Below the pieces are notes generated by a model. It was not told the origin of the DNA. It worked only from the letters and a program-made list of their open reading frames with translations, and did no database searches. A stretch of DNA of 64,000 nucleotides, taken from the IMG/VR virus record IMGVR_UViG_3300025449_000010, positions 8,068 through 72,067 of that record. One strand, given 5' to 3'. Source of the stretch: a virus. A program made the position numbers and the translations under genes. Below, one piece after another: positions 10,716-11,840 of this stretch; the first letter of the stretch is position 1, and every line of letters starts with the position of its first letter.

Positions 10716-11840
10716 ATGCGCAAGAACCTACACAATTATAAAGAGGCGCTGGCGGAGAACCGTGACTGGGATACCAAGGCACGGAAGGATCTCGCTACAG
10801 GTAAGATCAAGGGTGCCTTCGCAGGCCCACATAGGTCATACCCTATCTCCTCAGCAGCAGATGTGACCAATGCCTGGAATCTGGCAGGTCATGCAGACAA
10901 TCCAGATGAGGTACGCAGGAACATCAAGCGAATAGCCAAGCAACATGGCTGGGAATCAGGACTACCCAAGACTGCCAGGGAGAAATACGCAGATACCCCT
11001 GAACCTGTGACAGTAGACGTACCTGTGGCAATACTCGGCAGCTGGGAGCATCCCCAGTACGGTGAGACCACCTTCACTGAGCAGGACTTCAGTGAGATGC
11101 AGGAGAACTTCGAGCAGAACACCATCGGCTACGAGCCTCCACTATACATAGGACATGACCGCAGTCAGCCTGCCTGCGGCTATCTGACCAGGCTCTACAG
11201 GGAAGATGACGTACTGTGGGGCACCTTCGAGCTGCTCTCTGAGGAGAAATATGATGACCTGGATGGGTATCGCTACAGCAGCCCTGAGATAACCCGCGAA
11301 ACTGCCAGTAAGGCAGATGGTGCCAATATAGGCACAGTACTGACTGGTCTGGCACTGACCAACCACCCCTTCCTGACTGGTATGCCCCGCGTCAGTCTGT
11401 CGGCCGGCGGCCAACAGTGCTCCACTGCCAAGTACTTCTTCATGTGTCTGGACAATCCAGACATAGCCTACGATGTGCTGCTCAACGAGCGCCGCACCTA
11501 TGGTAAACAGGTGGTCTGGAACGAGGAGGGCAATGTGCTCCTCTACGTGACAGCAGACGATAATCCAGTGGCAGACCAGGGTTTCATGTGCAGCAGCTGT
11601 GCCTTCTACACGCAGGCAGGCTACTGTGAACTGATAGGGCTGAAGCCGCCCAATCCAGTAGAGCCAGGTGGATACTGTAAGCTCTGGTTCCCAGTCAGAG
11701 ACGAGGAGAATGCCGAGGTACCTGGGGAGGAGGCTGAGGATATCAACAGCATGGTCACCATGCTCAATGACTTCTGCTATGCCGAACAGGGCTACGAGGC
11801 TCTGGTTAAGTATATAGAGGAGGATAACAGTGAAGAATAA
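10716..11840 (+). CDS. Mu gpI-like prohead protease with N-terminal DUF6582-like domain and C-terminal HiPIP-like 4-Cys domain
   Basis: PLYIGH, YRYSSPE and ALTNHPF protease motifs; N-terminal SYPI..ADV.NA; C-terminal CSSC-x8-C-x16-GGYCKLW. Confidence 0.8.
   Translation: MRKNLHNYKEALAENRDWDTKARKDLATGKIKGAFAGPHRSYPISSAADVTNAWNLAGHADNPDEVRRNIKRIAKQHGWESGLPKTAREKYADTPEPVTVDVPVAILGSWEHPQYGETTFTEQDFSEMQENFEQNTIGYEPPLYIGHDRSQPACGYLTRLYREDDVLWGTFELLSEEKYDDLDGYRYSSPEITRETASKADGANIGTVLTGLALTNHPFLTGMPRVSLSAGGQQCSTAKYFFMCLDNPDIAYDVLLNERRTYGKQVVWNEEGNVLLYVTADDNPVADQGFMCSSCAFYTQAGYCELIGLKPPNPVEPGGYCKLWFPVRDEENAEVPGEEAEDINSMVTMLNDFCYAEQGYEALVKYIEEDNSEE

Follow-up and report, generated by a model that had tools for sequence, protein, structure and literature searches.

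A HiPIP-like Cys4 domain behind a protease-type domain in a head-module protein of an uncultured phage

ORF1 and its Cys4 motif

The window analysed here, a stretch of 64,000 nucleotides, comprises bases 8068-72067 of the 72-kb IMG/VR virus record IMGVR_UViG_3300025449_000010, which is judged to be about 45% complete. Its head module harbors an open reading frame (ORF) at 10716-11840 on the plus strand, and translation of 10716-11837 yields a protein of 374 amino acids, denoted ORF1 (P0001; a 99%-identical protein is P0002). In ORF1 a protease-type domain is followed by a four-cysteine (Cys4) domain resembling the high-potential iron-sulfur proteins (HiPIPs), which in bacteria are known to be exported and to carry electrons in the periplasm. 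The elements along the chain are the following:

10716..11840, plus strand: ORF1 (P0001), 374 residues; in order a DUF6582-like domain, a Mu-I-type protease-like domain, a HiPIP-like Cys4 domain and an acidic tail with C-terminal helices
10803..10970, plus strand: DUF6582-like N-terminal domain 'GAFAGP..SYPI..HADNPDEVRRNI', approximately residues 30-85; Pfam DUF6582 at E 0.052, sub-threshold
11013..11408, plus strand: Mu-I-type head-protease-like domain, approximately residues 100-231; phrog_976 and phrog_328, Pfam Mu-like_Pro below its cut-off
11445..11708, plus strand: HiPIP-like domain, residues 244-331; N-terminal helix and hairpin, then the predicted cluster-binding half
11589..11687, plus strand: Cys4 core C292-x2-C295-x8-C304-x16-C321-K-L-W324; the four cysteines are invariant in alignments A1, A2 and A3
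11709..11837, plus strand: acidic linker and C-terminal helical tail, residues 332-374; alignable to the same region of the metagenomic relative P0028

The two tail helices (residues 339-355 and 358-369) are seen solely in a low-confidence AlphaFold2 (AF2) model calculated without an alignment, with a predicted local distance difference test score (pLDDT) of 35. The N-terminal block recurs with 58-65% identity in the phage protease-type proteins P0003, P0004, P0007 and P0008, and a homolog search with the whole of ORF1 returns mostly matches to this block and not to the Cys4 domain. A search against NCBIfam gave no match.

An earlier note on this DNA had drawn attention to the cysteine motif. 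As quoted there it is present letter for letter in the ORF1 translation (...YVTADDNPVADQGFMCSSCAFYTQAGYCELIGLKPPNPVEPGGYCKLW...), and its placement at 11589-11687 is exact, running from the TGC that encodes C292 (11589-11591) to the TGG that encodes W324 (11685-11687). In a six-frame translation of the window, comprising 875 stop-to-stop ORFs of at least 30 amino acids, the relaxed pattern C-x2-C-x6-10-C-x10-18-C occurs twice, namely in ORF1 and in one Cys/Asp-rich antisense frame. With 28 bona fide proteobacterial HiPIPs combined into a profile, ORF1 is the sole ORF under the inclusion threshold (E 6e-4, 15.8 bits), and the next-best of the 875 is found at E 0.31. A PF01355 search of the window's own record gave no match, its first-pass step being too coarse for such a divergent copy. 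At the sequence level, the Cys4 motif of ORF1 is more than a chance pattern.

Similarity of the Cys4 domain to HiPIPs

Comparison of the window domain with 177,635 distinct PDB sequences by phmmer gives three matches, all of them HiPIPs with the four cysteines aligned, at E values of 0.13-0.73. In a HMMER search of 1.84 billion representative sequences with residues 232-335 as query, 23 matches are found at E<=1e-3. One of them is the 99%-identical cluster of ORF1 itself (P0002), and 19 others contain C-x2-C-x8-C-x12-16-C, so that the four cysteines are kept in 20 of 20 true matches. The remaining three, P0010, P0014 and P0029, were dropped as spurious, being tandem-repeat proteins that align to another part of the query. 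With the Cys4 domain alone as query, PHROGs gave no match.

Two alignments of the domain family were employed, A1 with 20 sequences and A3 with 42, the latter taken mostly from other sources than A1. In A1 a G, a Y, an N and a further G are invariant along with the four cysteines. The four top matches of the A1 profile in the PDB are all HiPIPs (3h31, E 1.3e-5; 1isu, 0.0023; PioC, 6xyv, 0.0055; 1hpi, 0.019), and the A3 profile places the same four on top, with a best E value of 1.1e-4. In turn, the Pfam HIPIP model matches 17 of the 20 A1 members at E<=1 (best 2.1e-4), the runner-up family being DUF3716.

In order to compare the family with HiPIPs profile against profile, the 28 bona fide HiPIP genes above the Pfam cut-off (alignment A5) were used, which come from 602 sampled proteobacterial genomes; HiPIP-bearing genomes number 2 of 201 in one sample and 23 of 401 in the other. 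Alignment by hhalign of A1 with A5 gives a probability of 96.7% (E 3.2e-10) over 43 columns, and that of A3 with A5 gives 96.8% (E 2.9e-10) over 42 columns, both including all four cysteines. When the cysteine columns of A5 are held fixed and the other columns are shuffled 40 times, the score falls to 12.5±3.1 (maximum 21.7, maximum probability 22.6%) as compared with 51.9 for the real alignment; since the cysteines stay in place in this control, the similarity to HiPIPs rests on far more than the four cysteines. The reversed alignment scores 10.8. Taken by themselves, the weak single-sequence scores would suit a chance cysteine pattern unrelated to HiPIPs, a view that is effectively refuted by the family-profile matches and the shuffle control, as well as by the invariance of the four cysteines across hundreds of relatives, and that we consider next to impossible.

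The correspondence extends to several details of the short HiPIPs (PF01355), here represented by the 54-residue PioC of Rhodopseudomonas palustris (6xyv), 1isu, 3h31 and 1hpi. The order of the cysteines is the same, an aromatic residue stands three positions after Cys2 and a tryptophan three positions after Cys4. In ORF1 these aromatic positions are occupied by F297/Y298 and W324, nearly invariant in the family as F54 and W81 of A1 and A3, and a tyrosine precedes Cys4, as in 1isu and 3h31. PioC aligns to the module family without gaps, and the consensus spacing of the relatives, C-x2-C-x8-C-x12-C, is that of the short HiPIP L086, which bears a Tat-type (twin-arginine translocation) leader; the ORF1 copy departs from this consensus by a four-residue insert between Cys3 and Cys4. 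Y277 of ORF1 is the putative counterpart of the N-terminal HiPIP tyrosine, a position that falls outside the equivalence supported by hhalign. Unlike in short HiPIPs, a helix/hairpin ('..PRQ..Y..E.I.E.FG.F..G..GAHY..A..NPF') is added on the N-terminal side, and the N-terminal segment typical of HiPIPs is missing. Also unlike them, the module lies within a phage head protein (residues 244-331 of 374), has no signal peptide or Tat signal and is non-periplasmic, so that the Tat-dependent, periplasmic character of HiPIPs is not found here. A feature search of the ESM Atlas yields leads below 0.9, which are not counted as support; viral hypothetical clusters come first, and at rank 19 stands a viral cluster in which 12% of the members carry PF01355.

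Several observations weigh against the assignment as a cluster-binding HiPIP. On the ORF1 domain itself, the Pfam HIPIP model reaches 14.9 bits (E 0.034), below its gathering threshold of 22. The N-terminal third of the HiPIP model is left unaligned by hhalign with both A1 and A3, and the tryptophan of the G-W-C motif before Cys4, present in 28 of 28 HiPIPs, is Y in ORF1 and I, V, L or A in most relatives. Weak matches to zinc-finger-type Pfam families (DUF3716 in six of 20 members, RecR_ZnF in one of 20) leave room for zinc. The AF2 model calculated from A1 reaches a pLDDT of 64, too poor to decide the fold; Foldseek with this model finds no PDB match at E<=1e-3, the first HiPIP appearing at rank 26 with E 3.9, and the matches of a wide VIA-align search include no HiPIP and reach at most Z 2.4.

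These same observations, namely the restriction of the alignment to the cysteine-containing half, the loss of the G-W-C tryptophan, the zinc-finger matches in some members and the lack of a confident HiPIP-like model, would also fit a HiPIP-derived structural Cys4 knuckle that has lost the cluster, binds zinc and plays no part in redox or iron chemistry. Such a knuckle would serve as an interaction or assembly adaptor and might, for instance, dock head proteases to the portal, the scaffold or the capsid. The constant position beside proteases described below would suit such an adaptor. However, most of the profile signal is carried by non-cysteine columns, which is unexpected for a generic zinc knuckle, the aromatic residues after Cys2 and Cys4 are nearly invariant, and the preference for Pfam HIPIP (17 of 20 members against at most six for any zinc family) is clear; stand-alone copies located away from head genes argue against a pure adaptor as well. 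We regard this alternative as unlikely, though one to be reckoned with.

Taken together, the Cys4 region is best described as a distant member of the HiPIP superfamily and not as a regular family member, and homology to the HiPIP cluster-binding core is very probable. With regard to the ligand, a [4Fe-4S] cluster would be somewhat favored, zinc being the main alternative. The designation 'HiPIP-like iron-sulfur domain' in the earlier note is thus borne out as far as HiPIP-like goes, by means of the family profiles; the Pfam HIPIP search proposed there as a check is failed at threshold by ORF1 itself, and the homology becomes clear at the level of the family.

The protease-like domain and the relatives of the module

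The protease domain that the earlier note had placed ahead of the motif is indeed found there, residues ~100-231 matching the head maturation protease families phrog_976 (E 1.9e-7) and phrog_328 (E 1.1e-5). Pfam Mu-like_Pro (PF10123) stays below its cut-off of 25.2 bits both for ORF1 (17.7 bits, E 0.0027) and for the following gene, ORF2 (15.9 bits); P0009, which carries a precomputed PF10123 assignment, matches ORF1 at E 5.6e-8. In alignment A6, H112, H147, S189 and E191 (ORF1 numbering) are invariant in ORF1, ORF2, gp085 of the cyanophage Ma-LMM01 and P0009; by analogy with assemblin-fold proteases these four are putative catalytic residues. ORF1 lies in the head module, whose order is portal, two minus-strand genes, ORF1, ORF2 and major capsid protein, with the following assigned neighbors:

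8089..9597, plus strand: portal protein; phrog_113, E 1.8e-28
10012..10647, minus strand: Dps/ferritin-like gene, divergent from ORF1 and ~70 bp apart from it; Pfam Ferritin (PF00210), E 6.6e-15
11830..13305, plus strand: ORF2, 491 residues; DUF6321, a second Mu-I-type protease-like domain and a scaffold-like C-terminus
13319..14650, plus strand: major capsid protein; phrog_30785, E 8e-116

Among cultured phages, the Microcystis Ma-LMM01 group and a Microcoleus phage come nearest, with a major capsid protein of 44% identity. ORF1 shares with the Mu gpI-type protease/scaffold proteins (PF10123; Ma-LMM01 gp085) the series of motifs and the position between portal and major capsid protein, in synteny with gp083-gp086 of Ma-LMM01, and its protease part is 35% identical to gp085 over residues 105-240. 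The protease-like domains of ORF1 and ORF2 are 36% identical to each other (E 2e-19). ORF2 furthermore matches DUF6321 (E 2e-26) and in its scaffold-like tail phrog_32941 (E 4.9e-49), and it is devoid of the HiPIP-like module. Whereas Ma-LMM01 has, in the same gene order, a single protease-scaffold gene (gp085, with scaffold tail), the window virus has two, of which ORF1 bears the HiPIP-like domain and an acidic tail instead. Because Ma-LMM01 possesses just one such gene in the syntenic position, ORF2 is the ortholog of gp085 and ORF1 an extra paralog. The module is consequently fused to a protease-type protein, as the term 'prohead protease' in the earlier note implied, but this protein is an additional copy ahead of the gp085 ortholog rather than the prohead protease proper.

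ORF1 and ORF2 overlap by 11 nucleotides in different frames. A programmed frameshift that would fuse them, as in the fused relative P0028, was considered and rejected: ORF2 has its own GAGGAGGA Shine-Dalgarno sequence with an N5 spacer, a GTG start and an in-frame stop just upstream, and the two are separate overlapping genes. P0028, a metagenomic protein of 1112 amino acids with four cluster members, contains the equivalents of ORF1 and ORF2 as one chain with the same domain order, the Cys4 domain being located between the two protease domains.

Back-translated patterns from A1 recover at least 599 stretches in IMG/VR, and in at least 511 of these the module is confirmed by tblastn. The fusion is therefore no isolated case: the module is widespread in uncultured phages, and 478 small stand-alone proteins carry it as well. 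In the best 80 loci, which were kept for comparison, the four cysteines are conserved throughout (80 of 80; 76 by regular expression and four by eye). The four exceptions to the regular expression have the spacing x2/x7/x12 or a long x2/x17/x19, the latter reminiscent of longer HiPIPs; in L051 and L053 (match at ~5370-5554) the pattern reads C-x2-C-x17-C-x19-C, its loops being extended at the positions that distinguish long from short bacterial HiPIPs. Among 50,697 GenBank phage records a single one contains the module, the metagenome-assembled Actinomycetia phage DSL-LC01 (OQ999401), so that the module is not known from any phage in culture, and a search of prokaryote genomes (one per species, 185,579 species) with the closer seven-sequence alignment A4 gave two loci only, both in metagenome-assembled genomes.

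The proteins that host the module were compared in a set of 49, consisting of ORF1 and 48 complete, non-duplicate ORFs hand-picked from the best 80 loci; this set is biased towards the best matches, and its protease proportions are no unbiased census. Its protease domains are Peptidase_S78 (24), Peptidase_S78_2 (XkdF; 6) and Peptidase_S49 (3), where the sets may overlap, and further Pfam domains are Hva1 (Tudor-like; 7), AAA_33 (6), Zeta_toxin (2) and Phage_capsid (3). Several PHROGs 'head maturation protease' families match 14-24 of the host proteins, and the unannotated phrog_2859 matches 34. Ten relatives were mapped. In all seven that bear a protease, protease-capsid fusions included, the module precedes the protease by 40-320 residues; one of the other three has a zeta-toxin/AAA_33 domain and two have no Pfam domain. 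Two chains, L011:4774-7482 and L041:1325-4510, join the module with Zeta_toxin/AAA_33 kinase-type and Hva1 Tudor-like domains in head modules, in a polyvalent-protein-like manner. In L041:1325-4510 a second, different HiPIP-type domain (residues 605-647) follows directly after the first and passes the Pfam HIPIP cut-off with 26.4 bits; P0022 likewise carries a second one (residues 265-296). In both proteins this second domain has a longer Cys2-Cys3 loop and the ending ..H-Y-C-D-A-W. Some head-protease polyproteins therefore contain two tandem HiPIP-like modules.

The module also occurs by itself. A profile search among proteins of 46-158 amino acids gives 478 matches at E<=1e-3, and none of the 120 stand-alone matches listed has a name or a precomputed Pfam domain. 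All of the 119 listed stand-alone relatives P0032-P0150 have the four cysteines with x2/x8/x12 spacing, and a Tat-like motif is found in 0 of these 119. They are ~120 residues long, and in 89 of 119 an N-terminal N-Y-W-L-x-E/D leader ends at residue 8-16 and is followed by an acidic linker; many of those lacking it begin with M-K-N-[VI]-W-L-S-N. The leader appears to resemble those that target T4 internal proteins to the capsid, which are short and terminate in an L/I-x-E cleavage motif. In two annotated stand-alone loci (L038, L052) the neighbors are 2-oxoglutarate (2OG)-Fe(II) oxygenase, ribonucleotide reductase and glycosyltransferase and not head genes. Because these copies adjoin metabolic-type genes, the module is not strictly a head component, which has to be held against the encapsidation proposed below.

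Possible roles of the module

The reading that we favor, with a probability of roughly 55%, is that ORF1 carries a probably [4Fe-4S]-binding HiPIP-family module on an accessory protease paralog and that this module is carried into the head. ORF1 is an accessory paralog of the Mu-I-type head protease/scaffold gene of this cyanophage-like virus, and its protease-fold domain is followed by a relative of the cluster-binding core found in short HiPIPs of the PioC type. Most likely, C292, C295, C304 and C321 would ligate the [4Fe-4S] cluster, shielded by the aromatic residues Y277, F297/Y298, Y320 and W324. As the domain lacks an export signal, it is synthesised in the cytoplasm, within a protein of head assembly. 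It belongs to a large unnamed phage clade whose modules have repeatedly been placed directly upstream of proteases of the HK97 S78, XkdF S78_2, S49 and Mu-I types. The protease/scaffold part would draw the module into the procapsid as internal cargo or as an internal structural element; the cargo may then be released by the protease and expelled, or be kept and ejected with the DNA. The duplicated protease-fold protein ORF1 would serve as the carrier and ORF2 would keep the scaffold role, and as cargo the module would not switch the protease on or off.

The module is constantly found beside proteases of four families, with long acidic linkers and other accessory domains, which argues that its function is connected with the assembly of the head. 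In HiPIPs the cluster is enclosed by aromatic side chains and withstands air, and for this reason such a cluster would suit a virion, above all that of a phage of oxygenic cyanobacteria. The analysis establishes the motif, its homology to HiPIPs, the order of the domains, the recurrence beside proteases and the paralogy; binding of iron and sulfur rather than zinc, encapsidation, and any redox or iron role are what we infer.

The earlier note had offered two roles, gating of head maturation by redox or iron state and delivery of an iron-sulfur domain into the head, and had put the former first. According to this idea the cluster would be a redox or iron sensor acting on the fused protease, so that head maturation follows the state of the cell. 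The physical fusion to a domain that keeps the invariant His, Ser and Glu positions, the vicinity of module and protease in seven of seven mapped relatives and the Dps/ferritin-like gene next door could be read in this sense. Nothing was found in support of gating, however, and direct evidence for it is nil. Across four protease families as well as kinase/zeta-toxin-type and Tudor-like partners the module is attached via long acidic linkers, in the manner of beads on a string and not of an allosteric unit; it also exists alone, and it is absent from ORF2, the protease-scaffold ortholog. Moreover, HiPIP clusters are unusually inert to oxygen and would be poor sensors. Gating is accordingly judged improbable. 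Delivery into the head fits better, since the module lies upstream of four protease families and occurs in leader-bearing mini-proteins.

Another possibility is that the module is an auxiliary metabolic electron carrier in the cytoplasm of the infected cell, like phage ferredoxins, and is only incidentally fused to head proteins. Two stand-alone loci, L038 and L052, agree with this, being located beside a 2OG-Fe(II) oxygenase, a ribonucleotide reductase and a member of the PHROGs 'ferredoxin' family. Against this, the module is covalently part of a head-protease protein in the window and in 33 of the 49 host proteins (a sum of protease sets that may overlap), and the leader and acidic linker of 89 of 119 stand-alone forms would be needless in an ordinary soluble carrier. 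We consider a purely metabolic role very improbable.

In the cargo interpretation the closest parallels are other packaged phage proteins. T4 internal proteins and Alt are virion-packaged cargo with capsid-targeting leaders, and the stand-alone forms resemble them in their short conserved leader ending in L-x-E/D; packaging of ORF1 itself would follow from its protease/scaffold part. Encapsulin nanocompartments have an HK97-fold shell and take up ferritin-like or ferredoxin cargo via a targeting element. The Dps/ferritin-like gene beside a HiPIP-like gene in the head module of the window is comparable by analogy only, with Dps on the other strand, and an encapsulin-type targeting peptide was not identified in ORF1. 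Dps-like ORFs are present within ±6 kb of the module in three of the 80 related viral loci (L010, L035 and L043, by single-sequence phmmer). The Dps/ferritin neighbor hints at an iron or oxidative-stress theme and is treated as a lead, with no general association claimed; in the window virus, the module may work with the adjacent Dps/ferritin-like protein.

Polyvalent proteins are described as multi-domain strings in the head module with a processing peptidase, predicted to be packaged (Iyer et al. 2017, PMC5512222). The available part of that text contains neither 'HiPIP' nor 'iron-sulfur', and iron-sulfur cargo is not described in it. The relatives of the module are like polyvalent proteins in sharing chains with AAA_33/zeta-toxin-type kinase and Tudor-like domains.

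An annotated case is DSL-LC01 (L082, OQ999401.1 63051-68722). Here the module is located in a coding sequence (CDS) named 'capsid maturation protease', of a protease type different from that of ORF1. The same locus contains a 245-residue CDS annotated 'high potential iron-sulfur protein', the cysteine pattern of which differs from that of the module. After it come three consecutive 'capsid maturation protease' CDS, and the middle one, two genes on, holds the module. In the paper on the DSL-LC01 genome, terms for HiPIP or the module are absent (0 occurrences). As the earlier note had supposed, no characterised example emerged: the literature covered, that is, freely accessible main texts without subscription journals and supplements, describes no phage HiPIP-like domain.

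From the searches reported here, the module family is a new, phage-specific branch of the HiPIPs that lacks export signals and has become part of proteins of head assembly. Although at least 511 viral stretches and 478 mini-proteins belong to this clade, a single one of the 50,697 GenBank phage records contains it. This would be the first hint that tailed phages build their capsids around iron-sulfur modules or carry such modules in them. If the cluster is real, a recurrent accessory is added to the head proteases, a compact and probably air-stable iron-sulfur domain becomes available for study, and virions would have an iron content so far left out of discussions of viral iron. The 'Ferrojan Horse' idea concerns tail fibres (10.1101/674382). 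Were zinc bound instead, the module would still be a widespread uncharacterised accessory of head proteases and would show a redox fold taken over for a structural purpose.

A bolder extension of the cargo interpretation, which we put forward as a speculation and hold to be doubtful, is that, in many uncultured phages of water and soil, proteases, other head proteins and leader-tagged mini-proteins bring HiPIP-type [4Fe-4S] modules, which are stable to oxygen, into the capsid. Tens to hundreds of clusters per virion might then be ejected with the DNA and, once in the next host, serve as a redox or iron effector. If capsid loading is true, virion cargo would gain a new class, and viral particles would hold a pool of iron that has so far gone uncounted.

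Three further ORFs of the window may be mentioned. The second minus-strand ORF between portal and ORF1 (9609-10151, 180 residues) has a C-x-C...C-x-H pattern that appears SWIM-zinc-finger-like by eye, with no Pfam match at E<=0.01; as listed, its start runs into the end of the Dps ORF, so that the true start is probably further in, and gp084 of Ma-LMM01 (141 residues, minus strand) occupies the same place. Two giant ORFs leave the window at its ends, one at 57888-63998 on the plus strand (at least 2037 residues) and one at 3-7076 on the minus strand (at least 2358 residues). The latter is syntenic with the 3563-residue gp080 of Ma-LMM01, upstream of the portal gene.

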